From the NCBI GenBank assembly GCA_965217115.1, contig OZ244239.1:2096784-2160783 (forward strand): a DNA stretch of 64,000 nt. Reading direction: 5' to 3'. Positions 7,059-34,581 of the stretch are shown piece after piece. The first letter of the stretch is position 1. Each line of letters starts with the position of its first letter. The notes below the pieces were generated by a model. It worked only from the letters and a program-made list of their open reading frames with translations. It was not told the DNA's origin and did not search any database. Made by a program: the position numbers and the translations under genes. This DNA comes from Bdellovibrionales bacterium. GTDB taxonomy: Bacteria > Bdellovibrionota > Bdellovibrionia > Bdellovibrionales > CAYMLA01.

Positions 7059-7088
7059 AGGGGGAATCATTGACTCAAAATCAAGTCA

Positions 7089-7910
7089 TTACTTTTGAGT
7101 GTCAAAACAATAGCTCTCCGATGTGTGATAGAACCTATCCTCTGACCAGTTGTCTTTATTGTTTTTAAATGGATGGAGATTTATCAGAATCCTTGAGCGT
7201 TCGTTTCCACTGGGGTCCAGTAGAGAAGAGTAGGTGTTAGGGTTTGAGTAGAATGCAGGAATAAGAGCATCGGTCTCATGGAGCAAGGTATCGATATCAC
7301 CGTTGGCATCGTTATCATCGTTATTGTAACCAGCGATCTTGATGGCATGATCGTAACGTCCTATTCCAGAGACGACAAAATGAATCTGCTCAAACCATTC
7401 CTGGGGAGAGCTTCCACTAACCTTGGCAAATGGATTCCCATCATTATGCTCGTTGATGATGTTTTGCAAAACAGTGTAGGAGAGGGTGTCATAATAACCT
7501 GAGATAGGAATTGATTGCCCGTACCCTTTAAGCTCTAGGCGAAATTCTAACGGTGTTTCAGAGATGTCCGTGCTTTGATGATCCAGTGCTTCCCATTTAA
7601 AGAGGCGAATATAGTAATTCGCAGTGCTGGAGAAGTTGCTTGTATTGATGGAGTTCATCTTTAAATAGACAAACTCAAAGCTAGCGTTGCCACCGCTATC
7701 ATGGAGAACCTTCATGTCGGCATCAATAAATGAGCTATCAAATGAATTGCACTGAGCCACTTTTCCAGAAGAGTCATCGGTTCCGATACGACTGGCCTGG
7801 TTCGAAGAACCATCTCCTATCTTCTGACTGCCGCAACCTATGGAGAATAACCCTATAATGATGGTGCTGCATAAGAAAAGACACTTAGATACTTTTGTTG
7901 AATGTTTCAT
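7089..7910 (-). CDS. Hypothetical lipoprotein
   Basis: The internal ATG at 7910 is preceded by GGGAGGAAAA. The signal plus lipobox is MKHSTKVSKCLFLCSTIIIGLFSIGCGS. I recognised no family. Confidence 0.5.
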   Translation of the reverse strand: MKHSTKVSKCLFLCSTIIIGLFSIGCGSQKIGDGSSNQASRIGTDDSSGKVAQCNSFDSSFIDADMKVLHDSGGNASFEFVYLKMNSINTSNFSSTANYYIRLFKWEALDHQSTDISETPLEFRLELKGYGQSIPISGYYDTLSYTVLQNIINEHNDGNPFAKVSGSSPQEWFEQIHFVVSGIGRYDHAIKIAGYNNDDNDANGDIDTLLHETDALIPAFYSNPNTYSSLLDPSGNERSRILINLHPFKNNKDNWSEDRFYHTSESYCFDTQK

Positions 7911-8091: not shown

Positions 8092-8985
8092 ATGAGCGTT
8101 AAAAAAAAGCGGGTAAATATGCGAAATATTTTAAGTAATTACAAAACTGTCGTTTTGTTAGTCACGAGTCTGGGTTTTATGTGCTCCTGTGCAACGATTT
8201 CTCAGTTAAAAGACGGGCAAGTGCTCCATGGATTGGAGGAGAGCCTCTTAAAAGTCCCCCTGTTCTTGCATTTGAAATCAGTGAGAGGCGAAGTGGACAG
8301 GGTGTTTATTTATACGGAGGCTATTAATCAACATCACATAAACGGGCGTTCGCCAGTGTTAAAGAAAAACATCACGTCTTTTCTTGTGGAGATTGAGAAC
8401 TTAGGTGTTGATACAGAGAACCACCTAAATCAGCGTGTGCATGTTTTAAACAAAGAGGGAGAGTCGGATTTACATGATTACGCATACCCTCGATTAGGAG
8501 AGGTGTTTAACTATCAGTACAAGAGAAATGGCGAGGTTCTACAGGTAGAGAATTTTCCAAGGGATTCTCTTTTTTATGTGCCAGCGATCTCTCTACCTAA
8601 AGGGAAAAAAGGAAAGGGAGACACATGGGCATTGCAGAGATCATGGTGGGACTCTAAAAACAACGTGCAGCTAAATTTAGACATGGTAACGATTTTGGAG
8701 AGTTTCTTAGAATGTGGTGAAGGTCATATCTGTGCATTGTTGTCTATTGATGGGAAAGTCACGATCCCCTCGATGGTTAATAGTATTGAATCAGGTTTTT
8801 TAGGGCGTTTATCAGGAGAGATTCTTTTTTCCGTTGAGAAGGGAGTCGTGCTTGTATCAAACATAAAATCAGAAGAAGCCCTGCAAATCGGAGATGAGAC
8901 AATAGAAACCCATTCCTGTTTAAAGAGCGTGCTCATCTCTTCAAAAGTAGCAAGGGGCTTTAAAAAAAGTAAGTCTTGTGAATAG
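8092..8985 (+). CDS. Hypothetical lipoprotein
   Basis: The signal/lipobox is VVLLVTSLGFMCSC. The start is ambiguous (8044, 8092 or 8119). I recognised no family. Confidence 0.45.
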   Translation: MSVKKKRVNMRNILSNYKTVVLLVTSLGFMCSCATISQLKDGQVLHGLEESLLKVPLFLHLKSVRGEVDRVFIYTEAINQHHINGRSPVLKKNITSFLVEIENLGVDTENHLNQRVHVLNKEGESDLHDYAYPRLGEVFNYQYKRNGEVLQVENFPRDSLFYVPAISLPKGKKGKGDTWALQRSWWDSKNNVQLNLDMVTILESFLECGEGHICALLSIDGKVTIPSMVNSIESGFLGRLSGEILFSVEKGVVLVSNIKSEEALQIGDETIETHSCLKSVLISSKVARGFKKSKSCE

Positions 8986-8994
8986 TTAAAAGGT

Positions 8995-9360
8995 TCTTTA
9001 TGACAAACATATGACAAACAATGGTGGAGCCAGTTTTTTTTCTGATGAGCCGTTTTTTTTCTAGAGTCTCTCCCAAAAGAATCCAGCCCTTTTCTTGCTC
9101 AAACATCCGTTTGTCACCTTCCATTGCAGAGAAATGCAATGGAAGTCGCCAAGCCAAACTCGCCGAAAAGAACTGGATTCTTTTGGGAGAGACTCTAGAA
9201 AAAAAGAACGTATTCAATCAATTGAGTCAATGGATCTCTTTCTATGACTGACCTCCATGTATAACAACGCTGTTATCCATGGATAGTTTTAGAAAGAGAG
9301 CCCTCAAGATGGATCTCTTGGGAACATTTCTACTATTTATCACAAAGAACCAGTTAAAAC
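8995..9360. repeat. Dispersed structured repeat, copy A (about 350 bp, non-coding)
   Basis: It is about 90 percent alignable by eye to 22575-22926. It contains the tandem ATGACAAACA x2, a perfect 24-bp inverted repeat (9061-9084 and 9175-9198), an internal hairpin CCATTGCA-GAGAAA-TGCAATGG, and a second 12-bp hairpin at about 9255-9282. Confidence 0.85.
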
Positions 9361-9368
9361 CATGCCCT

Positions 9369-10064
9369 TTATGAAACTTGTGATCTCAACCAATGGCCTA
9401 GCTTGGTTTGTTCGGAGAGAAGCTTATTGGGTATGGATTCAAACTTAGTGAGATAATGGGAGAGCTTCCTCAGGTCCTCTTCTGTGTTGACCTTGAAGTC
9501 TTGGGACAGAGTGTGGACCTCCCCGCGTTTTTTTAAAACATCGTGGAATTCATTAAAAGCCTTATCAGATGTGTGAGAAACAGATTTCCATTCTTGGAAT
9601 GAGAGGTTGGCCTGACTGCCGTAAAGGTAGTAGCCGCCCCCATGACAAGGGCCAAGAACAAATTGATTTTGCAATGTCTTTTCAATGGCAAGCTCTATAC
9701 AAGAAGGTTCTATGTGAGGCTGATGGGGGGTCATAAAAAGAACAGCATCGTGCATTTCGAGTAAAGAGTCTTCTATGGATGCCAAGCACTCCCCAATGTC
9801 AAGACCACTTGTTGGTTGTAGAATTTTATTAAAATTTTGCCAAAGCCCGTTCTGTAGGCCAGCCTCTTCAGCAATAGCCCAGTAGGGGGTGAGTTTAAAA
9901 TCCTGTACTTGGGATGAAATTTTGAGGATAACTTCCTCAATGGCTTTTATAGATTGAATGTAAAACTCATTAATGGCCTCTGGGCCTAAGCTTCGTATTA
10001 AATCTAATTTTATAGGTGATAGACCAGGTGTTTTAACAAAAATAGCGAGGGCGATGTTTTTCAT
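9369..10064 (-). CDS. DUF2064 / TIGR04282-like nucleotidyl- or glycosyl-transferase family protein
   Basis: The N-terminus NIALAIFVKTPGLSPIKLDL matches, from memory, the DUF2064 signature (vFaKaPxxGxVKTRL). Confidence 0.5.
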   Translation of the reverse strand: MKNIALAIFVKTPGLSPIKLDLIRSLGPEAINEFYIQSIKAIEEVILKISSQVQDFKLTPYWAIAEEAGLQNGLWQNFNKILQPTSGLDIGECLASIEDSLLEMHDAVLFMTPHQPHIEPSCIELAIEKTLQNQFVLGPCHGGGYYLYGSQANLSFQEWKSVSHTSDKAFNEFHDVLKKRGEVHTLSQDFKVNTEEDLRKLSHYLTKFESIPNKLLSEQTKLGHWLRSQVS

Positions 10065-10098
10065 AGTGTCTGTCCTTTTATTGGTTTTGGAGATCTCT

Positions 10099-12456
10099 TT
10101 AGTGAAGCTCTGCCCATGTCACTCCTGAAGAAGTGTCTTTTGAATCAGTTTCTGTCTTCTTAGCAGATGAAGACCATTTTTGTACATAGAGACTTCGTGA
10201 TAAATAGGAGCGGATCGCTTTCTTTAAAGAATCAGTGCCATGGCCGTGTATGATTTTAACACGGTCTTCCTGTTGCAGGGTTGCTTTGTCTAATTGTATC
10301 TCTAGAGTTTCCAGGGCCCCATCAACTGTGAGTCCTCTCAGGTCTACAGTGCGAAATCCTCCGGACGTATCATACTGATGTCCACGGAGAGTTTTTGCCG
10401 TGGGGTTCTGTGTTGATTTTGGAGGTAATAACTCATGCCATGGCAGTATAAGACGTAGAGAGTTGGCCAGAACAGGGACTAAGCCTTTTTGATTGGGCGT
10501 TCCCTGAACAATCCCATTTTGTTTGAGATGGGAAACAAAGACATTAGACCCAGGGGGAAATTTATCTGCAAAAGCTTCGGGAGAGTCTACGACATTAGAT
10601 GAAGAATCTCTGTTGTTACCTGCGGAGCGGATAATCTGAGGGAATTCTTTTTTTATTTGTGAGAGGGTTTCGTGTTTACGGAAAATTTGTTCAACTTTTG
10701 TATTGCTTATCATATGGTCAAGTGTTCTCTCTGCCTTCTTGACAGATTTTTCTAGGTGTTGTTGTTTTTCCTTTTCAAACCCGTGTAATAAACTCTCGTA
10801 GTGACTTTTTAGTTTATTAACTTCCTTTCGTTCTTGGTTGAGAGAGTTTCTCATAGCCAGAATATCTCTTCTGAGGGTTTCTATATCCTCCATGCTCTCT
10901 AAATGTTTTTGAGATTCTGGAGACAAGAAGTCAATGGCCTGTTTGATGATGGCTGTATTTATGCCGATTCTCTTTGCTGTCTGTATGGCTAAGGATTCAC
11001 CTGCAATGCCTGGAAGAAATTGATAGGTAGGAATATCTTTTGCCTTGTCGTATTCCAAGCTGCCGTTGATAACTTTTGAGGATTCTGACCAGCCGACTTT
11101 AAGTGGGCCTAAATGACTTGTGATAACACCGTAGACTTTGTTGTCAGCGTAGGCATTGATAAAACTTCGAGCGATGGCACTGCCTTCCTCGGGATCTGTT
11201 GAGCCACAGATTTCATCGATAAGAACCAATGATCGGGGTCCTTTGTATTTTAGATTTTCATTTAATATTTTTAAATGGGCGGCGAATGTGCTCAAATGCT
11301 CATCCACACTCTGGGCATCTCCAACGGCAACGGTGATGTGTTCAAAGAAAGGAACGAGGGAATCCTTTTCGGCACAGATGGGTAGACCACATCGTGCCAT
11401 GTGTGCAGTTAAACCGATGGCTTTGAGAAGAATTGTCTTTCCCCCTGCATTGGGTCCAGAGAGGAGTAATATTTGTTTCTCCCTGTCGAGAGACACATCA
11501 TTGGCAACAATGGATGTTGAATGGTTGGATAGGTTTTGTGTCTCAAAAACAAGCAGAGGGTGACGAACTGAATTAAGCTCTAATTTATCTTCAGAAAAAC
11601 GACAGGGGTTTGCCCCAATGAGTTGTGTGAAACGGGCAAGGGAGAGAATGATATCGACCTCTACCATAAGCCCATAGGATTGTTGAAACTGTTCAAGCAG
11701 GGATCTGAGATAAAGGCTGAGTTTTCTAAGGAGTCGCTCTATTTCATCTTCAATATCGATTTCAATCTGTCGAATGCGATTGTTGATGGGGATAATTTGT
11801 TGGGGTTCCATAAAGACAGTTTGTTTCGAATTACTAGATGCGTGAATGACGCCTTCTATCTCGTGTTGCATTCCTCCTTTGATAGGCAGAACCCAGCGAC
11901 CCTCTCGGGTTGTTACGTACTTATCTTGTAGAATAGGTTCCATGCCGTGATCTTTTGTCAGGTGATCCAAGGTTTTACTGATCTCGCGCGCGAGGGACCT
12001 TTTCTCTTTAATGAGTTGGCTGAGTTTCTCACTGGCGTCAGTGCGAATCTCTCCAGAGGGTGTCATGATGGAGTCAATTTTTTCTAAAGGGGCAGAGGCA
12101 TCTAGGAGTTCTTCCTGTAAGAACTCAATCCACTCTCTGGAGCTGTTTTCGATGAACTCTTTGAGTGTTAGAGCTTCTTGGCAAAACCAGCGCACATCTT
12201 TTATTTCGAGAATCTTGAGGACGGCCTCTTTTTTGAGTCGAGAGGCCCAGGGGTTAAAAAAATCTAAGCTCTCCATAAAAGGCCTAGGCCCTTGGTGTAG
12301 GAGAGAGCAAGCATCGTCAATTTTTTGAAAACTCCGACAGGCCTCTCGACTTGATGGAAGGGGAGCAAGGAGGGAAATTTTTTCTTTTGCAACATCGCTC
12401 GTGGCAAGAGGTTGAATTTTTCTAATGACGTCAGTCCAATCAATATGACTTAGCAT
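10099..12456 (-). CDS. mutS2: Endonuclease MutS2 (MutS domain V ATPase plus C-terminal Smr)
   Basis: Walker A LLLSGPNAGGKTILLKAIGL, Walker B LVLIDEICGSTDPEEG, and a C-terminal Smr domain VDLRGLTVDGALETLEIQLD...IIHGHGTDSLKKAIRSYL. Confidence 0.9.
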   Translation of the reverse strand: MLSHIDWTDVIRKIQPLATSDVAKEKISLLAPLPSSREACRSFQKIDDACSLLHQGPRPFMESLDFFNPWASRLKKEAVLKILEIKDVRWFCQEALTLKEFIENSSREWIEFLQEELLDASAPLEKIDSIMTPSGEIRTDASEKLSQLIKEKRSLAREISKTLDHLTKDHGMEPILQDKYVTTREGRWVLPIKGGMQHEIEGVIHASSNSKQTVFMEPQQIIPINNRIRQIEIDIEDEIERLLRKLSLYLRSLLEQFQQSYGLMVEVDIILSLARFTQLIGANPCRFSEDKLELNSVRHPLLVFETQNLSNHSTSIVANDVSLDREKQILLLSGPNAGGKTILLKAIGLTAHMARCGLPICAEKDSLVPFFEHITVAVGDAQSVDEHLSTFAAHLKILNENLKYKGPRSLVLIDEICGSTDPEEGSAIARSFINAYADNKVYGVITSHLGPLKVGWSESSKVINGSLEYDKAKDIPTYQFLPGIAGESLAIQTAKRIGINTAIIKQAIDFLSPESQKHLESMEDIETLRRDILAMRNSLNQERKEVNKLKSHYESLLHGFEKEKQQHLEKSVKKAERTLDHMISNTKVEQIFRKHETLSQIKKEFPQIIRSAGNNRDSSSNVVDSPEAFADKFPPGSNVFVSHLKQNGIVQGTPNQKGLVPVLANSLRLILPWHELLPPKSTQNPTAKTLRGHQYDTSGGFRTVDLRGLTVDGALETLEIQLDKATLQQEDRVKIIHGHGTDSLKKAIRSYLSRSLYVQKWSSSAKKTETDSKDTSSGVTWAELH

Positions 12457-22056: not shown

Positions 22057-22494
22057 ATGAAAAAGTTAATACTGTGTCTGTGTCTTTTAGGAATAGCCAG
22101 TCCATCGATGGCCATTGATTTCGATGGTGTTTGGGATGATATTTCCGATATAAGAAGATGTGAGAAAAAGGTTGAGGAACGGGATAATCAGATAAAGGAA
22201 CAGAAGAGACACATAAGAAAAATAACAAGAAAGCTAAGAAGATCAGAGAGACAAGTGGACGAACTAAATAGAGAGATAGAAGAAAAAGACGCCATCATAA
22301 GAGATCTCCGTAGAGGCGAAGGTGTCGTTATGCACATCTGTTCATCGGAGGCTTACTATGACGGACCCTATGTGGGAAGAGCCCGAACTAAAACTGAAGC
22401 AGAAGCAAAATCCATGGGAGACTGTAGAAGAACAAGCGAAAATAAACATTGGTGCAAAATCATTTCCTGCGAAAAATACACCGAGGGAAGTTAG
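22057..22494 (+). CDS. Small secreted coiled-coil / Cys-rich protein
   Basis: RBS GGGGGGATAAAAAATG, signal peptide MKKLILCLCLLGIASPSMA, a charged heptad-like middle, and a Cys-containing C-terminus. A rho-independent terminator follows. Confidence 0.6.
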   Translation: MKKLILCLCLLGIASPSMAIDFDGVWDDISDIRRCEKKVEERDNQIKEQKRHIRKITRKLRRSERQVDELNREIEEKDAIIRDLRRGEGVVMHICSSEAYYDGPYVGRARTKTEAEAKSMGDCRRTSENKHWCKIISCEKYTEGS

Positions 22495-23116: not shown

Positions 23117-23380
23117 ATGAAAAAGCTAATACTGTGTCTGTGTTTTTTAGGAATAGCCAGTCCATCAATGGCTGGTAGGGCTGGTGATATTTTGGGTAGT
23201 ACTTGGAGTAGTGGTGATAATAAAAGCGGGCATGAAGAAAAGATTAAAAAGATTAAAAAGCTGGAAAGTCAGATAGAGAAACAAAAGGGAGATATAGAAA
23301 AATTAGAGGAAAAAGTGGACAAAGTAGATGAAAGACTAGGTGCCCTCGTCAAACTCATATTCGGCTCTTCTTATAGGTAA
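23117..23380 (+). CDS. Truncated paralog of the 22057 secreted coiled-coil protein
   Basis: The signal peptide is near-identical (MKKLILCLCFLGIASPSMA). The ORF stops after 87 aa, and the homologous C-terminal coding sequence continues out of frame downstream. Confidence 0.5.
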   Translation: MKKLILCLCFLGIASPSMAGRAGDILGSTWSSGDNKSGHEEKIKKIKKLESQIEKQKGDIEKLEEKVDKVDERLGALVKLIFGSSYR

Positions 23381-23538: not shown

Positions 23539-23567
23539 AAAGGCCACTCTAGGGAGTGGTCTTTTTT
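23539..23567 (+). terminator. Rho-independent terminator (duplicate of 22544-22572)
   Basis: The same AAAGGCCACTCTAGGGAGTGGTCTTTTTT hairpin plus T-run. Confidence 0.6.
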
Positions 23568-25347: not shown

Positions 25348-25764
25348 ATGGATAATGAAGAATTAGATTTAACATCTTTCTCTAGAGCAGTTGAGACGTT
25401 TAGGGTGGCACTCGATGAATACACAAAAGATGAAATCAATGATTTCGTCCGCGATGCTTGTATTCAGCGGTTTAAGTATTGTTATGATTCGTCAAAAAAG
25501 ATAATAAAGCGTTATTTAAAAGGGGTTGTCGATGACCCTATGGAACTTGAGAGCATAGGTTTAGCAAACTTAATTAGAGATGCTTATACAAGAGGCTTAG
25601 TTAAACATAGTTGGGATGTCTGGGATACGTACCGACTCAATCGCAATGCCACTTCCCATGGGTATGATGAGGCAACGGCCATCGGAATTGTTGAGGCATT
25701 GCCAGCCTTCTACCAAGAGGTCTTATTTTTATTAGAAAGGTTAGGCTCAAAAAATGAAACTTAA
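25348..25764 (+). CDS. HEPN-domain protein (nucleotidyltransferase substrate-binding, HI0074 family); putative toxin of a HEPN/MNT pair
   Basis: 138 aa with the Rx4H motif RNATSH, typical HI0074-like size, and an 11-nt overlap with the downstream MNT-encoding ORF. Confidence 0.7.
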   Translation: MDNEELDLTSFSRAVETFRVALDEYTKDEINDFVRDACIQRFKYCYDSSKKIIKRYLKGVVDDPMELESIGLANLIRDAYTRGLVKHSWDVWDTYRLNRNATSHGYDEATAIGIVEALPAFYQEVLFLLERLGSKNET

Positions 25765-27319
25765 ATTTGATGTCACCCCTGAAGAATTCTCCATAATAAG
25801 AGATATTTTAGAGAAGAATCTTTCCAGTCATTGCAAGGTTTGGGTATTTGGCAGTCGCGCTAAAGGCAGTGCCTTATTTAACTCGGATTTGGATGTGGCA
25901 TTAGAGTGTAAAACTAAAATAGCACAAAAATTTTTAATACAATTAAAAACAGATTTTGAAGAGTCAAGACTTCCATATAAGGTGGATGTTTTAGATATAA
26001 AGAGTGTCGAACCTTATTTTAAAGAGATCATTGATAAGCAGAAAACCCCTTTTCCCCTTGAAATAAAAAATAAAGTGCCAAAATTAAGGTTTAAGGAGTT
26101 TAGTGGGGAGTGGGAAGAAAAGAAGTATGGTGAGATGTACTCTTTTTTCACAACTAATTCACTTTCAAGAGAAAACTTAAATTATGAATATGGTAAAGTA
26201 AAAAACATTCATTATGGTGACATACATACGAAATTTACAACACTCTTTGATCTTGAAAAAGAGCAAGTCCCTTTTGTGAATAAAGGGGTAGATATTTCAA
26301 AGATAAAATCTGAAAGTTATTGTTTGGAAGGTGATTTGGTAATTGCTGATGCTTCGGAAGATTATTTAGCTATCGGAAAAACTATTGAGATAATAAATTT
26401 GAATGGTGAAAAAGTAATAGCAGGGCTACATACCTTTTTAGCAAGGCCCAATAAGCACAAGATAGCATTGGGTTATATTAGCTATTTCCTACAGTCTTGG
26501 AAATTTAGAAAACAAATAATGACAATTGCTCAAGGTTCAAAAGTTTTAAGTATTTCTATACCAAGACTTTCTGCAACAAAACTAACCCTACCAACCAAAC
26601 CAGAACAACAAAAAATCGCCTCATTCCTAACAGCAGTGGACAGAAAAATAGCCCACCTAAATAAAAAGAAATCCTTACTTGAGAGTTATAAAAAAGGCCT
26701 AATGCAAAAAATATTCTCACAAACCATCCGCTTCAAAACCAACGACGGCAACAATTTCCCCGATTGGGAAGAAAAGAGGTTGGGGGATACATCAGAAATA
26801 GTTGGGGGAGGCACGCCTCCAACGGGTATTAAGAAATATTGGGATGGTGATATCCAATGGTTTACACCTACAGAAATCAAGAACAAGTATGTATGTAACA
26901 GCAATCGAACTATTACGCGGGCTGGGCTAGACGCATCCTCGGCAAAGTTACTGCCCAAGGGGACTCTACTTTTTTCTAGTAGGGCTACTATTGGTGAGGT
27001 GGGAATAGCGACCCAGGAATGTACAACTAATCAAGGTTTTCAGTCCTTCATTGTTAATCAAAATCATGAGCCTGAATTTTTATATAACTGGATACTCCAA
27101 AATAAGAAGAAATTTATTAAAGGAGCTTCAGGTTCTACTTTCCTAGAAATCGGAAAGAATGAAATTAAAAGAATAGAATTAAACTTACCAATAAAACCAG
27201 AACAACAAAAAATTGCTTCATTCCTAACAGCAGTGGACAGAAAAATTGAACAATTGAATGAAAAGCAAAAATTATTTGGTGAATTTAAAAAAGCACTCCT
27301 CCAACAGATGTTTGTATAA
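25754..27319 (+). CDS. hsdS: In-frame fusion of a minimal nucleotidyltransferase (MNT) domain to the type I R-M specificity subunit
   Basis: The first 100 aa or so carry the MNT signature VWVFGSRAKGSALFNSDLDVAL. There is no stop before a canonical HsdS N-terminus (VPKLRFKEFSGEWEEKKYGE). Two TRDs are separated by conserved helices (PEQQKIASFLTAVDRKI x2). The DNA direct repeats 26597-26650 and 27194-27246 are near-identical. An in-frame GTG at 26075 is a possible separate HsdS start but has no visible RBS. Confidence 0.8.
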   Translation: MKLKFDVTPEEFSIIRDILEKNLSSHCKVWVFGSRAKGSALFNSDLDVALECKTKIAQKFLIQLKTDFEESRLPYKVDVLDIKSVEPYFKEIIDKQKTPFPLEIKNKVPKLRFKEFSGEWEEKKYGEMYSFFTTNSLSRENLNYEYGKVKNIHYGDIHTKFTTLFDLEKEQVPFVNKGVDISKIKSESYCLEGDLVIADASEDYLAIGKTIEIINLNGEKVIAGLHTFLARPNKHKIALGYISYFLQSWKFRKQIMTIAQGSKVLSISIPRLSATKLTLPTKPEQQKIASFLTAVDRKIAHLNKKKSLLESYKKGLMQKIFSQTIRFKTNDGNNFPDWEEKRLGDTSEIVGGGTPPTGIKKYWDGDIQWFTPTEIKNKYVCNSNRTITRAGLDASSAKLLPKGTLLFSSRATIGEVGIATQECTTNQGFQSFIVNQNHEPEFLYNWILQNKKKFIKGASGSTFLEIGKNEIKRIELNLPIKPEQQKIASFLTAVDRKIEQLNEKQKLFGEFKKALLQQMFV

Positions 27320-27328
27320 AGGCTGGTA

Positions 27329-27886
27329 ATGAATATGGAAAGATGTAGAAAGTGGTTAAAGTTTTTTGGGATCGGACTTATATCCCTTGTGTTAATTTAC
27401 TTTCTCTGGATTTCTCTCATAGAATTATGGTGCATATTCTCCTTAGGCGATAAAGATATTAAATCTACGATAATAGGTATATTTGTCACTGCCGTTGTTT
27501 CTTTAACAGGTATTCTTATCTCTAAAAAATTAGATAGAAAAAATCAAGAACAAAAAGATCTAAGAGACCTTAGGACCCCATCCTATGAAGAGTTTATTTC
27601 TTTTGTGTTTAAAGCAATGTTTTCTGTAAAAAAAGGCAGGAAACCTATGGGTGTAGGGGAAATTAATAAAGAAATGGAAAGGTTGACCCCGTTACTTATA
27701 GCGCAAGCCTCTGAAAAAGTTCTCCTTGCGTATGAAAGATTCAGAGAAGAAGAAGATGATGAGATTGAAAGAATAAATACTATATTAAAGTTAGTTTTAA
27801 TAATGAGGGAAGATTTAGGCTACACAAATAAAGGTATTTCTATTGAGACCCTCAAAAATATTTTTATAATAAAAGAGAGCGATTAA
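27329..27886 (+). CDS. Hypothetical 2-TM membrane protein embedded in the type I R-M operon
   Basis: Two N-terminal hydrophobic helices (FFGIGLISLVLIYFLWISLI and IIGIFVTAVVSLTGILI) precede a charged helical C-terminal domain. It starts 10 nt after the hsdS stop. I recognised no family. Confidence 0.5.
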   Translation: MNMERCRKWLKFFGIGLISLVLIYFLWISLIELWCIFSLGDKDIKSTIIGIFVTAVVSLTGILISKKLDRKNQEQKDLRDLRTPSYEEFISFVFKAMFSVKKGRKPMGVGEINKEMERLTPLLIAQASEKVLLAYERFREEEDDEIERINTILKLVLIMREDLGYTNKGISIETLKNIFIIKESD

Positions 27887-27908: not shown

Positions 27909-28562
27909 ATGGATTCTTTTAAGAAGTTAATAAATGAAAATTCAATATATTTTGAGAAGATGGAGTATTATTTTGCGATCGCCCAAGAAGCTGAAGTAAA
28001 TTTGAGAGACAACCCTGATATTTCGATAGAAAGCTGTAAATCACTTATAGAAGGAGTCTCGAAGTATATTCTTAGTGTGTTATTAGCTGAAAATTATAAT
28101 GATAACACTATTTCAAGAAAGAAGTTTAAAGCCATAGTAAATACCATGTTAAAAGAGGTGGCTAAACGCAGAGGAGCCATTGATGACAACCATTTTATAT
28201 CCCAATGCTTGGAGTTTGTAGGGATTTTAGGTAAAACTAGAAATGACAGGGGAGACATTTGCCATGGAAGATGCTCTCCTAAGGAAGAAGTGAGTTCTCC
28301 TGAACTAGCAAAGCTTGTTTTCAGTATGACTGATGCTGTGTTGTCATATATACTAGATATTTTTTTTCAAATAGAGGACCCTCGAATCAAAGAAGAAGAA
28401 TCTTACGATCATGAATCTCTTAGGGATTTCAATGATTATTTAGATGAAGAAAATCCGTTGGATGATGGCATAAGCTATAGTAAAGCTATTTTTTATCAAG
28501 ACCCCATAGCGTATAAAGTAAAATATGATAATTTCTTAGACAATCAAGAGGCCAATCAATGA
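27909..28562 (+). CDS. Abi_C-like (HEPN-superfamily) abortive-infection-type protein
   Basis: From memory, SIESCKSLIEGVSKYILSVLL ... GILGKTRNDRGDICHGR matches the Abi_C (PF14355) pattern with an Rx4H motif (RGDICH). It has an acidic C-terminal tail, and its stop overlaps the hsdR start (ATGA). Confidence 0.5.
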   Translation: MDSFKKLINENSIYFEKMEYYFAIAQEAEVNLRDNPDISIESCKSLIEGVSKYILSVLLAENYNDNTISRKKFKAIVNTMLKEVAKRRGAIDDNHFISQCLEFVGILGKTRNDRGDICHGRCSPKEEVSSPELAKLVFSMTDAVLSYILDIFFQIEDPRIKEEESYDHESLRDFNDYLDEENPLDDGISYSKAIFYQDPIAYKVKYDNFLDNQEANQ

Positions 28563-31393
28563 CAATTCAATCCGAAAATACCCTAGAGAATTTGCTTATT
28601 GAGCAGTTGGTGTCATTGGAATACGAAAAAGTGTCAGCGAACACCGAAGAGAAGCTATTGGTTAATTTAAAGACCCAGTTGGAAAAACACAACAAAACGA
28701 CCTTTAGCGGGATTGAGTTTAAGCGCATTATGAACCACCTTAGCAGGGGTAGTGTTTTTGAGAAATCCAAGATTCTTAGAGACAAGTTTGTGCTTAATCG
28801 AGAAGATGGAACTAAGAGCTATATCAATTTTTTAGATAGCACACACTGGTGTCAGAACTTATTTCAAGTCACCAGTCAAGTCACCATTGAGGGGAAATAC
28901 AAAAACCGTTACGATGTAACTCTTCTAATAAACGGTCTTCCCCTTGTGCAAATCGAGTTAAAGCGCAGAGGGTCAGAACTTAAAAAAGCTTTTAATCAAA
29001 ATAACCGTTATCAAAGGCACTCTTTCCATGCCAATAGTGCCTTATTCGGGTATGTGCAAATATTTGTCATTTCAAATGGAGTCAATACTAAGTACTATGC
29101 CAATAATAGAGATCAATCTTTTAAACAAACTTTTTTCTGGGCTGATAAAGACAACAGAAACATAACAAACCTGAATAAATTCACAGGGAGTTTCTTAGAG
29201 AGATGTCATATCTCAAAAATGATCTGTAGATATATCGTTTTAGCCGAGAGTGATAAAAGACCTATGGTTTTGCGTCCATATCAGTACTACGCCACTGAAT
29301 TGATTCTTGATAGAGTGGTTAACTCCAATAGAAATGCTTACATCTGGCACACCACGGGGAGTGGAAAAACATTAACATCATTTAAAACTTCACAGTTACT
29401 AATGAAACTTCCGCAAGTGTATAAGGTGGTCTTTGTTGTAGATAGAAAGGATTTAGATTATCAAACCACTAAAGAATTTAATAGTTTTAGCAGTGGTAGC
29501 GTGGATGGCACAGACAACACCCAAGCCCTGGTGAGACAATTCAACGATGATACAAAACTCATTGTCACCACCATCCAAAAGCTAAATACGGCGATCAGTA
29601 AAGAGCGATATCTGTCCACCATGGAAAATTTAAAAGACAAGAACATCGTATTTATTCTCGATGAATGTCATCGTTCACAATTTGGAGAGACTCACCTAAA
29701 GATTACAAAGTTTTTCGAGAAAAGCCAGATGATTGGCTTCACAGGCACGCCGATATTTGCACAAAATGCTGTTGCCAATACGATTGGCAAGCGCACCACT
29801 GCCGATCTATTTGATAAATGCCTCCATAAATATGTCATCACTGACGCGATTGCTGACGATAATGTGTTGAAATTCTCCATTGAGTATGTCGGTAGATATA
29901 GACAAAGAGAAGGCAGTGCTAATAGTATTGATATTAAAGTTGAGAATATTGACACTAAAGAGGCACTAGAATCTGATGATAGATTAGAGAAAATCACAAA
30001 CTACATTATTGCAAACCATGGTCGTAAGACACATGCTAAAGATTTTAATGCCATGCTTGCTGTGAGCGGTATTTCGACACTAACAAAGTACTATGAGCTA
30101 TTTAAATCAAAAAAGGAAAGGGGTGAGCATAATCTAAAAATAGCAACCATCTTTAGTTACAGTGCCAATGAGGATGATAAAGACGCTGATGGTATTCCTG
30201 AATCAGAGGGCGCAAATGTTGATGAGGCCAATATTAATCAGCACAGTCGAGATAAATTAGAGAGTTATATTGAAGATTACAACCAGTTATTTGGCACGAA
30301 GTTTACCACCAAGGAGTCGCAGAGTTATTATAACTATTATAATGACATTGCTAAACGAGTAAGAAACAGGGAAATTGATATTTTGCTAGTGATTAATATG
30401 TTTTTGACAGGTTTTGATAGCCCTACACTTAACACCCTGTATGTGGATAAAAAGTTAAAGTATCATGGACTCATTCAAGCCTTTTCACGGACCAATAGGA
30501 TTGTGGCTGAAAAGAAATCCCAAGGAAATATTGTAAGTTTTAGAAATCTTAAAGAGGCCACCGATGAAGCGATCACCCTATTCTCAAATAAGGATGCCAG
30601 AGAGAAAATATTGATTCAGCCTTATGAGGAGTATGTCGAGTTGTTTAACAAAGCATTTGCAACCCTACTGGGCATAGCACCCAGTGTTAATAGCGCGGGT
30701 GCCTTAGTGACTAAGGAAGAGCAGCTAAAATTCATTAAAGCCTTTAGAGAGTTGATGCGGCTAAAGAATGTTCTCTCTGGATTTAGTGATTTTAATTTCT
30801 CAGATTTATCTATGGGAGAGCAGCAGTTCGAGGATTACAAGTCTAAGTATCTCGATTTGTATGAGGCAGTTAAGTACAGTATGGAGGATAACAGAGTATC
30901 TATACTTGATGATGTGGATTTTGAACTGGACCTCCTCCACAGAGATGAAATCAATGTGGATTATATATTGAAGCTTCTTACTGAATACAATGGAAGCACA
31001 GAAGAACAATGGGATGAGAAGAAGGAAAATATTTTTAATCTCATATCTGGCCAAGAACACTTAAGGTCTAAGAGAGAATTAATTGAAGAATTTATCGACA
31101 ATAACTTAATAAATATCTCTAACGGAGATGATATTGAGACTGAGTTTAATAAATTCTGGGAGGAACAGAAATCAAAGGAACTTACTGAGTTATGCGATGA
31201 AGAGAATTTAGACAAGCCTCGCGTTAAGAGCCTTATCGAAACCTACATCTACGATCAACGTGAGCCACTGGGCGATGATATCGCTAAAACACTACAAACC
31301 AAATTCAAATTACTAGAGCGACAAAAAGTGATCTCAAGGGTCCTTAATATGCTCATGAAGCATATTGAAAAATTCTATAACGCAAAGACCTGA
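28559..31393 (+). CDS. hsdR: Type I restriction endonuclease R subunit
   Basis: The N-terminal PD-(D/E)xK motif is RYDVTLLINGLPLVQIELKR. The helicase motifs are HTTGSGKTLTSF (I), ILDECHRSQ (II, DEAH-like), GFTGTP (III) and QAFSRTNR (VI). Confidence 0.9.
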   Translation: MTIQSENTLENLLIEQLVSLEYEKVSANTEEKLLVNLKTQLEKHNKTTFSGIEFKRIMNHLSRGSVFEKSKILRDKFVLNREDGTKSYINFLDSTHWCQNLFQVTSQVTIEGKYKNRYDVTLLINGLPLVQIELKRRGSELKKAFNQNNRYQRHSFHANSALFGYVQIFVISNGVNTKYYANNRDQSFKQTFFWADKDNRNITNLNKFTGSFLERCHISKMICRYIVLAESDKRPMVLRPYQYYATELILDRVVNSNRNAYIWHTTGSGKTLTSFKTSQLLMKLPQVYKVVFVVDRKDLDYQTTKEFNSFSSGSVDGTDNTQALVRQFNDDTKLIVTTIQKLNTAISKERYLSTMENLKDKNIVFILDECHRSQFGETHLKITKFFEKSQMIGFTGTPIFAQNAVANTIGKRTTADLFDKCLHKYVITDAIADDNVLKFSIEYVGRYRQREGSANSIDIKVENIDTKEALESDDRLEKITNYIIANHGRKTHAKDFNAMLAVSGISTLTKYYELFKSKKERGEHNLKIATIFSYSANEDDKDADGIPESEGANVDEANINQHSRDKLESYIEDYNQLFGTKFTTKESQSYYNYYNDIAKRVRNREIDILLVINMFLTGFDSPTLNTLYVDKKLKYHGLIQAFSRTNRIVAEKKSQGNIVSFRNLKEATDEAITLFSNKDAREKILIQPYEEYVELFNKAFATLLGIAPSVNSAGALVTKEEQLKFIKAFRELMRLKNVLSGFSDFNFSDLSMGEQQFEDYKSKYLDLYEAVKYSMEDNRVSILDDVDFELDLLHRDEINVDYILKLLTEYNGSTEEQWDEKKENIFNLISGQEHLRSKRELIEEFIDNNLINISNGDDIETEFNKFWEEQKSKELTELCDEENLDKPRVKSLIETYIYDQREPLGDDIAKTLQTKFKLLERQKVISRVLNMLMKHIEKFYNAKT

Positions 31394-31477: not shown

Positions 31478-33379
31478 TTAGGTGTCATTATTTTTTATAT
31501 CTACTGGGTTAGACCAAATTTTTTCTAAATTTACAGTGTCGCTATTTGGCTGATTAGCTTTATCTAAGAGATCTATAGTGGTCTTCACAGGTAAATTTGT
31601 TGCTACTCCAGCAAAAAAACAACTTCCAACTGATAAAATAGGTATGGATTCAAAAGATAGCTTGTCTAAGTAAGCAACGGCTTTATGAATTGCATTTATA
31701 TCAGAATCATTTAATAATTTGTGAATGAAATAATTATGCAACTGTGAAATCATTGTGGTTGATATATCCTGTGGCCTCTGGCTGGCGATGGTTAAAAATG
31801 TATTAAATTTTCTACCCTCTTTGATAATCTCCTCAAATATTTCTAATCTGTAATCTTTCCAACTTTCGCTCTCTCGTGCTGATTTATCCGATAGGATATT
31901 GTGAGCTTCATCAATGATCAAATGTAATGATTTTTCTTTAAAATCTTTGTCTGCCTTATGAGTTTCATATAATTTTTTGATTATCAACAATGGCAATGTT
32001 TTTTTGATTTCTGTATTAACATCCTTCAAGTTAATAATGATTAAGTTTTTTTTATCAAAGATATCGGAGTCACTTCCTGTATTTAAAACTTTTTCAATAT
32101 CTTTTTGCTTGCTCTTTAGTTTGTTGATAGCTGGCGCAATATGGTCATTTTGAGCTTTATCATTATAAACGTCATAAATTATTTGCAAATACAGGAAATG
32201 TATAAATTTTGATATAGAATCTTTTGGGAACTCATAAGTGTCAATTCTTCTATATATGTCTAACTCTTCAATATCATTATCAACTAGCTTGTGTCGGGGG
32301 TTACCATAATTATTTGGAATAAACCCTTTAGGATCTACTCCTGATCCACCACCATGCCATTCTAATCTAGCAAATATTTCTTCATCAGTTTTTTTTATTA
32401 TATTTTCGAAATAGTCAAGTAATGTAAAAGCCTTATCTTTTAAGATCATGCGGTAGATTTTTTTTAGCTCAGATCTTAATGAATTTTTGAAATGGTTTAA
32501 AGATTCGTTATGCACTTTGTGTACACGTTTATATAATCTGATAGTTCTTTCTATAAAAGGCTTCTGTGTTTTTTCTGTTGCATTTGCTAAAATTGAAAGT
32601 AACTCAATGTCAATTAAATCTTTTTCATGTAATGGAATTTTATCTTCCCCGTTCTCTGTTGCTGTGCTTAGAGTATAAACTTTTTTATTCTCTGTGATAA
32701 TTTGATCTTGGTCCTCATCCTCATCTTTTCCACCATACTCGCCGTTAAAATCTATAATTACAAACCGAGATTTTTCCTTAAAATCGTCACGTTCCTCCAT
32801 GAGCTTAAAAAGTTCATAGTATATTTTTGCTAGAGTATGGGATTTCCCACTTCCAGTATTACCAAAAATACCGATGTGGCTTGCAAATAGTTGGTTAATA
32901 GATACTTTTATTTTTTGTGCAGGTTCATCTGACAGAGAGCCGATAGTAATCGTTTTTTCATCTTCTCTATGGAACTGATGCAGTTGACGAAATTCATCTC
33001 TGTCGAGTAAATAACAATCATTGTCAACAAGTGGCATTTCTTTTATACCTTGCCTAAACTTACTTCCTTCAAAATAACCAGCTAATGAAACTTCTAAAAA
33101 CCGCTCAATATTATCCTCTTCCTTGTTATATTCTTTATGAGTAACTGCTTTAGTCCCTATAGATTCACCTTCAATTTTACCAATAATATTAGTAAATCCC
33201 TTGGTTATTTTAATGTAACTATTAACGGAGATATTTTTTAAGACTTGACCATCAAATAAGAGATGAGATGCATTTTTGTTTTTATTAACCTTAATTCTAA
33301 CAGATCTACCAGAGATGGAGTGGACTGAGCCAACTATAAAAACTGACTCCCTCTTTAATTGACTCTTGACATCACGCAT
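31478..33379 (-). CDS. HerA-like (DUF87) ATPase, partner of the SIR2 protein
   Basis: Walker A GIFGNTGSGKSHT and Walker B HLIIDEAHNIL. ATG at 33379 overlaps the SIR2 stop by 8 nt (an alternative ATG lies at 33403). Confidence 0.75.
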   Translation of the reverse strand: MRDVKSQLKRESVFIVGSVHSISGRSVRIKVNKNKNASHLLFDGQVLKNISVNSYIKITKGFTNIIGKIEGESIGTKAVTHKEYNKEEDNIERFLEVSLAGYFEGSKFRQGIKEMPLVDNDCYLLDRDEFRQLHQFHREDEKTITIGSLSDEPAQKIKVSINQLFASHIGIFGNTGSGKSHTLAKIYYELFKLMEERDDFKEKSRFVIIDFNGEYGGKDEDEDQDQIITENKKVYTLSTATENGEDKIPLHEKDLIDIELLSILANATEKTQKPFIERTIRLYKRVHKVHNESLNHFKNSLRSELKKIYRMILKDKAFTLLDYFENIIKKTDEEIFARLEWHGGGSGVDPKGFIPNNYGNPRHKLVDNDIEELDIYRRIDTYEFPKDSISKFIHFLYLQIIYDVYNDKAQNDHIAPAINKLKSKQKDIEKVLNTGSDSDIFDKKNLIIINLKDVNTEIKKTLPLLIIKKLYETHKADKDFKEKSLHLIIDEAHNILSDKSARESESWKDYRLEIFEEIIKEGRKFNTFLTIASQRPQDISTTMISQLHNYFIHKLLNDSDINAIHKAVAYLDKLSFESIPILSVGSCFFAGVATNLPVKTTIDLLDKANQPNSDTVNLEKIWSNPVDIKNNDT

Positions 33380-34487
33380 CGCTGCTATCCTCTTTTGTGG
33401 CATTCATTTTTTTAAATATTTGATCAGTTATTCTTTCTAAACCATAGTTATCTCCATTTTTAGGTGCGATAATTTTTATATTATGATTTTTTGATGTCTC
33501 CATTAATTCGTTAAGATATGCTCCACTGTCCTCTGAATAAGAAAAAACATACACTTGCAACGTTGGATTTGATCTTGCTGCTCTTTTCGTGATCTCTTTA
33601 ATATGTTGGTCCTTCATTGAGAAACCAATGACAAATAGGACAGAATTTTCTTTCTCCAATTCATTAGAATATGAGCGTAACAGTTCATAGTAGTATTTGT
33701 TTAAAACTGTCTCAGAGAACTTAGTCTCTTCAGGGTTAACAACAAGGATCTTTTTTTGATATTCTTTTAGGAAAGTTCTTTTTTTCTTTATTAAAGAACG
33801 CTCAAAATGAGACAAGTCTGAAGATAAATATATTTTCCTATTCTCATTGTTGAGATCAGACTCGTTATATTTCCAATTAACAGAGCCGTGAATTTTAAAA
33901 ATATTAAATATAGGGATTTCAGAACGTTTATCAAAATGTTGACTTCTTTGTATAATTGATTGCTTAAAATTACTCAAATCAAAAACAGGGTTCATTTTAC
34001 CTAGAAAGCCATCATTATAATGAATTTCTAAATCTTCTAATACTTTTTCAAAAAAAATATCAATATTTGTCGTGAATATATTTACCTGTCGTCCTATTAC
34101 AGTTGTTTTTCTATCTAGAATGAGCTTTGATAGAGTCGTAAGGAAATTCATATAGTTCCTGTACGTTATCCATAAGCTTATCTTGTTGGGCTCAGCTTCT
34201 TCTTGTAATTTATCGTGTCTATATTTAGAGCAGGGCTCTTTGAAATCATATGAAATTATATATTTATTTGGAAGCATCACTTTTTCAAAATACTCTTTGT
34301 ATTTATCTGATTTTTCGACTGCCTTTTTTGCGTTATTTATATCGTGCTCAATATTATTTAACGTCGGAAGGCATGGCTGAGATATGCCTGATCCCATTAA
34401 GAAATTAATATTTGCACTAGCAAATATGTCTTTGAACCTTGGCAATAAATGCTCTAATTCATCTTGAGTATTATCCTCGTCACTCAC
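33372..34487 (-). CDS. SIR2-like (SIR2_2) domain protein of a SIR2-HerA defense pair
   Basis: NFLMGSGISQPCLPT (Rossmann Gly loop), FKIHGSVNW and FVIGFSMKDQHI are typical of defense-associated SIR2_2 proteins. The GTG start at 34487 is preceded by AAAGGTGG (the track start is 34496). Confidence 0.75.
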   Translation of the reverse strand: MSDEDNTQDELEHLLPRFKDIFASANINFLMGSGISQPCLPTLNNIEHDINNAKKAVEKSDKYKEYFEKVMLPNKYIISYDFKEPCSKYRHDKLQEEAEPNKISLWITYRNYMNFLTTLSKLILDRKTTVIGRQVNIFTTNIDIFFEKVLEDLEIHYNDGFLGKMNPVFDLSNFKQSIIQRSQHFDKRSEIPIFNIFKIHGSVNWKYNESDLNNENRKIYLSSDLSHFERSLIKKKRTFLKEYQKKILVVNPEETKFSETVLNKYYYELLRSYSNELEKENSVLFVIGFSMKDQHIKEITKRAARSNPTLQVYVFSYSEDSGAYLNELMETSKNHNIKIIAPKNGDNYGLERITDQIFKKMNATKEDSSDA

Positions 34488-34581
34488 TTGAACCACCTTT
34501 CTGTTGTTTTCATAAAATAAAAAGAGACCAAAATTTTAATGACACAATTCAAAAAATAAATTGCCATCAGATAAAAATCTG

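Follow-up and report, generated by a model that had tools for sequence, protein, structure and literature searches.

What does it mean for the antitoxin of a toxin–antitoxin (TA) pair and the specificity subunit of a restriction–modification (R-M) system to be encoded as a single polypeptide? The question is raised by a six-gene type I (IC-like) R-M operon, reading hsdM, HEPN, MNT::hsdS, orf185, orf217 and hsdR, which lies in a 64,000-nt window of contig OZ244239.1 (GCA_965217115.1, Bdellovibrionales bacterium; forward-strand positions 2,096,784–2,160,783). The source genome is one closed 2.17-Mb contig, and all feature coordinates given here are window positions. By analogy with characterised relatives we consider it reasonably probable that HEPN and MNT::HsdS form a type VII (HEPN/MNT, AMPylation) TA pair of the HI0074/HI0073 subfamily, whose antitoxin forms a covalent N-terminal extension of HsdS and is so tethered to the R-M complex.

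The architecture of the fusion is clear from its domains. The open reading frame (ORF) starts at 25754, before the end of the HEPN gene at 25764, confirming the overlap of 11 nt noted in the initial annotation of this DNA and suggesting translational coupling of the two genes. A Polbeta/NTP_transf_2 domain occupies residues 15–96, with GSRAKGSALFNSDLD at 33–47 and VDVLD at 77–81, and all catalytic residues (G33, S34, D45, D47 and D78) are kept. A linker of ~8 residues follows, and then two Methylase_S domains, with full-length PADLOC Specificity_I profiles aligning to residues ~105–521. As there is no stop codon between the two parts, the earlier description of an MNT domain running in frame into a complete HsdS with two target recognition domains (TRDs) holds. 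The closest solved structure for the MNT part is HI0073 (PDB 1NO5; E=3.9e-13, 37% identity, root mean square deviation 1.6 Å, template modelling (TM) score 0.85–0.88), while MNT-family profiles match MntA (5YEP, E=4.8e-7) and the Legionella MNT (8XEH, E=2e-6), and the fold agrees with 8XEO at a TM score of 0.86. The HsdS part matches the fold of 1YF2 (E=2.3e-27) and also the HsdS subunits of EcoR124I (7BST) and EcoKI (2Y7C). An AlphaFold2 model of the whole fusion (mean predicted local distance difference test score, pLDDT, 87.5) contains a separate MNT domain and a canonical HsdS with coiled-coil helices at 282–321 and 481–520. In this model the MNT domain has helices at 9–22, 58–69 and 87–96 only; it lacks α4 and passes directly into the linker, where residues 104–107 fall below a pLDDT of 50. 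That its C-terminus is unneeded for toxin binding may be the reason for which this subclass of MNT tolerates C-terminal fusion. In view of the domain E-values, and because the same architecture is conserved elsewhere, we regard chance as excluded as its source.

The toxin gene is equally recognisable. The HEPN protein is a single domain of 138 residues that scores 86.2 bits against PF08780 (cut-off 31.8) and 61.6 bits against TIGR01987, the HI0074 family (cut-off 55.8), and matches HI0074 itself (PDB 1JOG, E=2.9e-12) and the Legionella HEPN (8XDJ, E=3.1e-7). With both profiles above their cut-offs and RNATSHGY at residues 99–106, its assignment as an HI0074-type HEPN with an RNATSH motif, made at first from the sequence alone, is upheld. 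A strong Shine–Dalgarno (SD) sequence, GGGGGGAGAG, precedes the gene. Genome-wide there is a single copy each of HEPN, MNT and hsdS.

Is the fusion real, and how far does it reach? A word search scored on fusion residues 1–125 returned 46 other proteins, ~290–600 residues long, that carry both Polbeta and Methylase_S. In an alignment of 26 fused homologues G33, S34, R35, D45, D47 and D78 are invariant, and the junction is conserved as well, with F100 invariant, P101 in at least 90% of the sequences, L102, and P109, L111, R112 and F113 invariant, while the TRDs are hypervariable. We then compared residues 1–125 exhaustively, with HMMER, with 1.84 billion 50%-identity cluster representatives and obtained 352 matches below 1e-10. 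Among the best 150 of these, 78 are at least 380 residues long, 38 have 135 residues or fewer and 34, mostly fragments, are intermediate; 77 of the 78 long proteins carry Polbeta together with Methylase_S, and G33, S34, D45, D47 and D78 are invariant across the 78. The fusion had been called unusual, which is true of the literature; among sequences, it is the majority state of the closest MNT relatives. It is thus conserved in other genomes, and the suspicion that homologous loci would always have a stop codon between MNT and hsdS is contradicted by them.

A missed base or stop between 26040 and 26080, joining two genes artificially, might have been feared, since the junction contains several homopolymers (A4, C4, T4, C4 and A6) and a deletion of one nucleotide would separate the genes. 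However, dozens of assemblies made independently and differing in nucleotide sequence have the same open junction, as does the RefSeq plasmid pZMOB01, and the present genome is a single closed contig, so that an assembly or sequencing error has a negligible chance of being the explanation. We rejected it on the conservation of the open junction: because homologues keep the frame open, the fusion can be taken as genuine. Phase variation at the junction was likewise judged unlikely, as the homopolymers there are 4–6 nt long and the genome is without another hsdS cassette.

The distribution of the fusion was followed in a scan with one genome per species, which gave 148 relatives, of which we examined the best 80. 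At least 26 of these 80 loci are fused to HsdS, always with HEPN directly upstream; 19 of the 26 have a type IC-like HsdS (including two cut by contig ends and two that are frameshifted), and seven have an HsdS of a different family. The carriers belong to Pseudomonadota (alpha, beta, gamma and zeta), Campylobacterota, Fibrobacterota, Nitrospinota, Deferribacterota, Chloroflexota and Nitrosopumilaceae archaea, and the fusion is held at 45–65% MNT identity across several phyla. A cultured and tractable carrier is Zymomonas mobilis ATCC 10988, whose plasmid pZMOB01 encodes an HI0074-family HEPN, a 527-residue MNT-fused 'restriction endonuclease subunit S' and hsdR. Deletion data on hsdSp of Zymomonas ZM4 (Lal et al. 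2021, PMC8432527) were set aside, as the hsdS of pZM32 is a plain protein of 420 residues without MNT, encoded directly after hsdM.

Gene order around the fusion is highly regular. In all 12 loci whose context was analysed, a HEPN gene (PF08780) stands directly upstream of MNT::HsdS, although in locus L010 it lies in an uncalled gap and was found by tblastn. An hsdM precedes the pair in 11 of the 12, the remaining one (L009) being an orphan without hsdM or hsdR, and hsdR follows wherever the locus reaches far enough; variable cargo is found on either side of the pair. Among the best 80 species-level loci, HEPN is directly 5' of MNT in nearly all, usually with an overlap of 4–17 nt. This HEPN-first order, also that of the window, is the reverse of the rule that MNT almost always lies 5' of HEPN (Anantharaman et al., PMC3710099). 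As to the cargo, reverse-transcriptase (RVT_1) genes directly follow MNT::HsdS in L114 (3038–4530) and in the contig of P0031, and elsewhere genes for PIN, Bro-N, DUF559, DUF2971 or DUF3800 proteins stand on one side or the other of the HEPN/MNT::HsdS pair, so that each of its flanks is a slot for variable cargo.

The join has arisen more than once. In a tree of MNT domains the type IC-like fusions form one clade (support 99/97), with just four truly free MNTs among its members. A separate clade (100/92) unites the fusions of Dehalococcoidia and Nitrosopumilaceae, in which the partner is the other HsdS family, and L044 and L082 are placed elsewhere; two more fusions with other MNT types (L101 and L104) came from a sample of the phylum of the window. 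HsdR is a second partner. Six loci (L010/L024, L021, L022, L025, L027 and L028), and L112 in addition, have an N-terminal MNT of 105–138 residues on HsdR, with the motif LYGSRAKG...GSDIDL (in L010, the same as L024, at 8711–11911), each after a second HEPN gene. Such operons read hsdM-HEPN1-MNT1::hsdS-HEPN2-MNT2::hsdR and bear an antitoxin domain on both HsdS and HsdR. Unfused arrangements with the same synteny also exist, which indicates that the parts are modular: in Acetobacter pAPA01-020 the MNT gene stops and hsdS starts 32 nt later, in L038 the MNT stop is followed after 2 nt by an ATG (MKKTCTPKLRF), and in L032 the order is HEPN-MNT-hsdM-hsdS. MNT domains and R-M subunits have thus, as far as these sequences tell, been joined repeatedly, which we read as selection for the tether, although this falls short of proof.

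How does the module compare with known systems? The two sets of features that would place it are both present: GSx10DxD with a third Asp (D78), an Rx4HxY HEPN and adjacency of the genes, as in type VII TA systems, and two TRDs alternating with two helical regions, hsdM and hsdR in the operon and an EcoR124-type C-terminal domain in HsdR, as in type IC-like R-M systems. The HsdS part is predicted to direct sequence-specific methylation and restriction. The closest solved relatives of both TA parts are H. influenzae HI0073 and HI0074 (1NO5, 1JOG), two separate small proteins without a fusion partner, unlike the proteins of the window; to our knowledge their function has never been tested. The nearest characterised pair is that of Legionella pneumophila, in which a short MNT lacking α4 oligo-AMPylates Tyr105 of the RX4HXY motif of the HEPN; this HEPN is an RNase that depends on Mg, and both its activity and its toxicity require Gln44 and Glu47 but neither the Arg nor the His of the motif (Jin et al. 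2024, PMC11586414). The pair of the window resembles it (8XDJ, 8XEH, 8XEO) in the short MNT (~108 residues) without α4, in GSx10DxD and in a HEPN of PF08780 type with RX4HXY. It differs in two respects. The Legionella MNT is a free protein with no R-M genes beside it, whereas ours is the N-terminal domain of HsdS, and the Legionella HEPN has its Gln/Glu site on helix 2, where the HEPN of the window has a Lys at the position of Glu47. In HepT/MntA of Shewanella oneidensis and HEPN/MNT of Aphanizomenon flos-aquae (5YEP, 7BXO, 7AE2) the MNT again neutralises a HEPN RNase, whose Tyr in Rx4HxY it oligo-AMPylates, and the MNT family of the window matches 5YEP; unlike in the window, however, the MNT there is longer, with an α4 inserted into the HEPN dimer, its gene precedes that of the HEPN, and the HEPN belongs to the DUF86 family.

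Three further systems illustrate the individual elements of the arrangement. In PrrC-EcoprrI the gene for a HEPN-superfamily RNase is located in a type IC hsd operon and its product, physically attached to the R-M complex, provides a second line of defence (PMC3710099, PMC3874165). The likeness to the window, a HEPN gene within a type IC hsd operon, is by analogy only: PrrC is an ABC-ATPase–HEPN protein whose binding is non-covalent and which the T4 Stp peptide releases, while the HEPN of the window is small, of HI0074 type and a single domain without an ABC-type ATPase, the link between antitoxin and HsdS is covalent, and activation by phage is putative. FhepTA of Shewanella is a fused MNT-HEPN in which fusion stabilises an otherwise labile MNT (PMC13000451); there the antitoxin is fused to the toxin itself, while here it sits on an R-M subunit and the toxin is separate. 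Finally, PDB chains named 'Cmr1-MntA' (9Z7Q, 9Z7V, 9Z7X) match the MNT profile (E=2.3e-5) and, as known from the chain name alone, carry an MntA-type domain on a type III CRISPR subunit, at the C-terminus and not at the N-terminus as on our HsdS; they would be a second example of this antitoxin domain joined to a subunit of an immune complex, and a literature search found no paper on them. R-M-linked HEPN domains are themselves known to fuse to nucleases and helicases (PMC3710099).

We propose that HEPN would be translated first, from its strong SD sequence, with the fusion gene coupled to it via the overlap. Using ATP, the MNT domain would then oligo-AMPylate Tyr106 in RNATSHGY, by analogy with the Legionella homologue, and the RNase would be kept silent. 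HsdS is the core of both M2S1 and R2M2S1 complexes, so that each R-M complex would carry one antitoxin enzyme. With such an architecture the supply, stability and location of the antitoxin would be tied to the specificity subunit, and upon loss, breakdown or perhaps inhibition of HsdS newly made HEPN would remain unmodified and active. The selected role may be a back-up abortive-infection switch, as with PrrC, or an addiction device for an otherwise non-addictive type I system. Such coupling, with the toxin freed on loss or inhibition of the R-M complex, is plausible, and it is strengthened by the fusions that arose independently with two HsdS families and with HsdR. More speculatively, and here our confidence is low, the R-M holoenzyme may be a general platform for type VII antitoxins, on which MNTs tethered to HsdS and, in certain operons, to HsdR would AMPylate their HEPNs only while the complex is intact and unoccupied, and anti-restriction proteins of phages or breakdown of the complex would stop the AMPylation and lead to RNA cleavage and abortive infection. 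If true, this would be the covalently wired counterpart of PrrC-EcoprrI, present across many phyla.

Several observations weigh against the tethered-antitoxin interpretation or restrict it. The most specific one concerns the toxin of the window itself. The motifs IQRFEY and RxxTSHxY are conserved in the HEPN partners of fused MNTs, and Rx4HxY is kept in nearly all of them; the HEPN of the window reads IQRFKY at a site where 43 of 44 relatives have Glu. Its K43 aligns with Glu47 of the Legionella HEPN, the nearest characterised homologue, where this residue is essential and its replacement by Ala (E47A) left the protein without RNase activity or toxicity (Jin et al. 2024, PMC11586414), so that of the Gln44/Glu47 metal site on helix 2 only the Gln (Q40) is present. 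The only other Lys seen at this position is in L035, where the HEPN is clearly dead. Since K43 replaces a Glu needed for toxicity in the Legionella protein, the local toxin is probably attenuated, and the module may be disarmed in this copy. On the antitoxin side, the NCBIfam MntA_antitoxin equivalog model gives 39.2 bits, under its cut-off of 60, and the MNT is on this evidence a relative of MntA and not an MntA equivalog. Strict dependence between toxin and antitoxin does not appear universal either, given that L053, with the nearest MNT relative of the window, has a truncated MNT and intact HEPN motifs, and that L018 and L020 have degenerate HEPN motifs beside intact fusions. In six Acidobacteriaceae the same MNT frame, after a HEPN gene, also continues uninterrupted into PurF, which shows that reading on into the next gene occurs away from R-M loci too and could mean that this MNT family simply tolerates C-terminal read-through. 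For the fused form we infer AMPylation, toxicity and HEPN–R-M association alike. Moreover, stop loss between adjacent coupled genes is an easy accident, and a deletion of one nucleotide restores the separate genes.

Some of these loci deserve a description of their own. The six PurF loci (L067, at 5977–7764, L074, L077, L079, L084 and L087) form a 100/100 clade with GATase_6/7 and Pribosyltran domains. The catalytic Cys of PurF comes after '...DKLREH' with no Met before it; the MNT may be an unusually large propeptide, or translation of PurF may begin internally. In L073 (2162–3040) an MNT of the same subfamily has a C-terminal extension of ~190 residues with RNKCAH (Rx4H-like) and no Pfam match, which may be an MNT-HEPN fusion. 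In L053 (5590–6520; a metagenome-assembled genome of the uncultured PS1 clade) the MNT ends after ~52 residues and is followed by ~300 nt of AT-rich sequence and an hsdS with its own ATG, and the HEPN has IQRFEY and RNATSHGY.

Could the fusion be neutral, with MNT and HsdS functionally independent and joined by stop loss between adjacent coupled genes, so that the tether has no regulatory meaning? The parts are indeed found unfused in the same synteny (Acetobacter pAPA01-020 and L038), a short linker, flexible by prediction, connects them in the fusion, and a one-nucleotide deletion in a C4 run would end the MNT as ...FPLK-stop, 8 nt before the GTG discussed below, which places the fused and split forms one mutation apart; the subfamily, furthermore, reads not only into PurF but into other tails in L073 and L081. 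However, a majority of the 150 closest representatives are fused, the fusion has been kept with a conserved junction over the MNT divergence and the phyla described above, and it has more than one origin, the partners being different HsdS families and HsdR, whereas a neutral accident would be unlikely to recur and persist. We therefore regard a neutral origin without function as unlikely, though it is the alternative we take most seriously. A rather different possibility is that two products are made, a free HsdS of 47 kDa from GTG 26075 being the working subunit and the full-length protein serving mainly as an antitoxin, with its HsdS tail acting in stabilisation or localisation. The GTG, codon 108 in frame, does exist without an obvious ribosome-binding site, as the initial annotation had pointed out: there is no SD-like sequence upstream (TTGAAATAAAAAATAAAGTG). 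The codon before PxLRF in type IC-like fusions is GTG in 15 of the 20 cases that have Val, against ~4.4 expected from the Val usage of each gene, a figure inflated by the kinship and hence non-independence of the sequences, and in two further columns where these genes have a conserved Val, GTG accounts for 32% and 48%. These columns served as the control instead of unfused HsdS, for which 400 genomes of the same phylum yielded 11 other genomes with a match, to other HsdS subfamilies without the VPxLRF N-terminus. In three more fused genes an ATG or TTG stands 3–4 codons upstream. Unfused hsdS genes start 3–5 codons upstream of this Val (GTA in L032), so the GTG is not simply an old start codon. 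The idea of a separate HsdS thus stands as far as the over-representation of GTG goes and fails where the codon is missing, in 12 of 27 fused genes (GTT, GTA, ACG, ACT, GAA, ATA or ATT instead), and on initiation signals, with no conserved SD sequence before this position in fused relatives and none in the window. In lineages without the GTG the fusion itself must, judging by these genes, be the working HsdS, while the codon bias hints at free HsdS being made as well in some lineages, this one possibly among them; as a general account, a division of labour between two products seems to us improbable.

What if the HEPN is not a toxin here at all? It could be the substrate-binding subunit of a two-protein nucleotidyltransferase, and the enzyme, tethered to the DNA-recognition complex, would then modify some other target, for instance a phage protein, an R-M subunit or a nucleic acid. 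A substrate-binding role was first proposed for HI0073/HI0074, the pair to which ours is closest, and the Pfam family is named 'NTase substrate binding'; K43 suggests that the RNase function is dispensable in this copy, and MNT domains are also found on HsdR and, going by the PDB chain name 'Cmr1-MntA', on a CRISPR subunit. Yet among tested homologues the nearest is toxic as an RNase and is neutralised when the Tyr of its motif is AMPylated (PMC11586414), this Tyr and the Gln/Glu site are conserved in almost all partners, and there is no evident candidate for an alternative substrate. We therefore give this proposal very little weight, and retain the type VII pair with an HsdS-tethered antitoxin as the preferred interpretation.

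Type I R-M systems and type VII TA systems are each well studied, and HEPN toxins coupled to R-M systems are an established idea; the joining of an antitoxin to an R-M subunit is apparently unstudied. A full-text literature search, including the main papers on HEPN, type I R-M and type VII TA systems (PMC3710099, PMC3632139, PMC3874165, PMC13000451), returned no description of an MNT-HsdS or MNT-HsdR fusion. The join is nevertheless common: of the representative clusters closest to this MNT about half have it, and it recurs with different HsdS families and HsdR. 'Restriction endonuclease subunit S' is all that current annotation says of the fused genes, so that the embedded TA module is invisible there. 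The fusion offers a concrete and testable case for the long-standing hypothesis of immunity coupled to suicide or dormancy, and would show how an enzymatic antitoxin, of which stoichiometry is not required, can be made to share an immune complex's fate.

The features of the operon are collected in Table 1. No convincing hairpin breaks the operon in a scan from hsdM to hsdR, and neighbouring genes are at most 22 nt apart or overlap. Its G+C content is 36.8%, against 40.1% for the window.

Table 1. Positions of the operon genes and of the sequence elements discussed (window coordinates).
Feature	Position	Strand	Evidence or remark
Terminator-like hairpin of the preceding gene	23539..23564	+	strong, 11-bp stem then T-run; upstream boundary of the operon
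hsdM, 519 aa	23777..25336	+	N6_Mtase 1.3e-110, HsdM_N
HEPN (HI0074 type), 138 aa, predicted RNase toxin	25348..25764	+	PF08780, TIGR01987
Lys43 codon AAG of HEPN	25474..25476	+	aligned to Glu47 of Legionella HEPN
RNATSHGY (Rx4HxY), HEPN residues 99–106	25642..25665	+	Tyr106 is the predicted AMPylation site
MNT::HsdS fusion ORF, 521 aa, 59.6 kDa	25754..27319	+	start overlaps HEPN stop by 11 nt
MNT domain, residues 1–100, short HI0073 type without α4 helix	25754..26053	+	1NO5 match, fold match
GSx10DxD catalytic motif (G33 S34 ... D45 x D47), residues 33–47, GSRAKGSALFNSDLD	25850..25894	+	
Junction FPLEIKNKVPKLRF: MNT end (FPL), short linker, conserved HsdS N-terminus (VPxLRF)	26051..26092	+	
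GTG, in-frame codon 108 (Val108), candidate internal start for a 47-kDa free HsdS	26075..26077	+	
HsdS part: two TRDs, two long conserved helices (residues 282–321, 481–520)	26066..27319	+	
Direct repeat copy 1, central conserved region of HsdS	26575..26715	+	
Direct repeat copy 2, C-terminal conserved region of HsdS	27172..27312	+	
orf185, 185 aa, predicted membrane protein, two N-terminal hydrophobic segments, cargo gene	27329..27886	+	hydropathy scan
orf217, 217 aa, weak Abi_C (HEPN-clan) match, RGDICH motif, cargo gene	27909..28562	+	
hsdR, 944 aa, type IC-like, without MNT extension	28559..31393	+	HSDR_N, SWI2_SNF2, T1R_D3-like, EcoR124_C

The two direct repeats within hsdS are 75% identical over 141 nt, and their 54-nt cores (26597–26650 and 27194–27247) agree in 51 of 54 positions. 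They do encode the conserved HsdS helices, as first noticed, but TRD reshuffling, for which they were suggested as substrates, has no partner here, this being the only hsdS in the genome; the repeats are simply the two conserved helices.

PADLOC has no model for HEPN, orf185 or orf217. The orf185 product had no family match among Pfam, NCBIfam and PADLOC profiles and no homologue in any fetched locus. For orf217 the match to PF14355 is under the cut-off (E=7e-4), and a homologue 34% identical to it is encoded directly 3' of MNT::HsdS in L027 (7537–8130); it would be a second putative RNase in the operon, without a cognate MNT. Directly downstream of hsdR, on the opposite strand (31478–34496), a HerA-type ATPase (PADLOC HerA, 604 bits) with an overlapping upstream ORF of 374 residues is consistent with a SIR2-HerA defence pair, and the R-M operon sits in a defence island. 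On the other side of the operon, two ORFs (22057–22494 and 23117–23380, the second shorter) share a near-identical signal-peptide-like N-terminus, MKKLILCLC(L/F)LGIASPSMA, followed by coiled-coil-like sequence.

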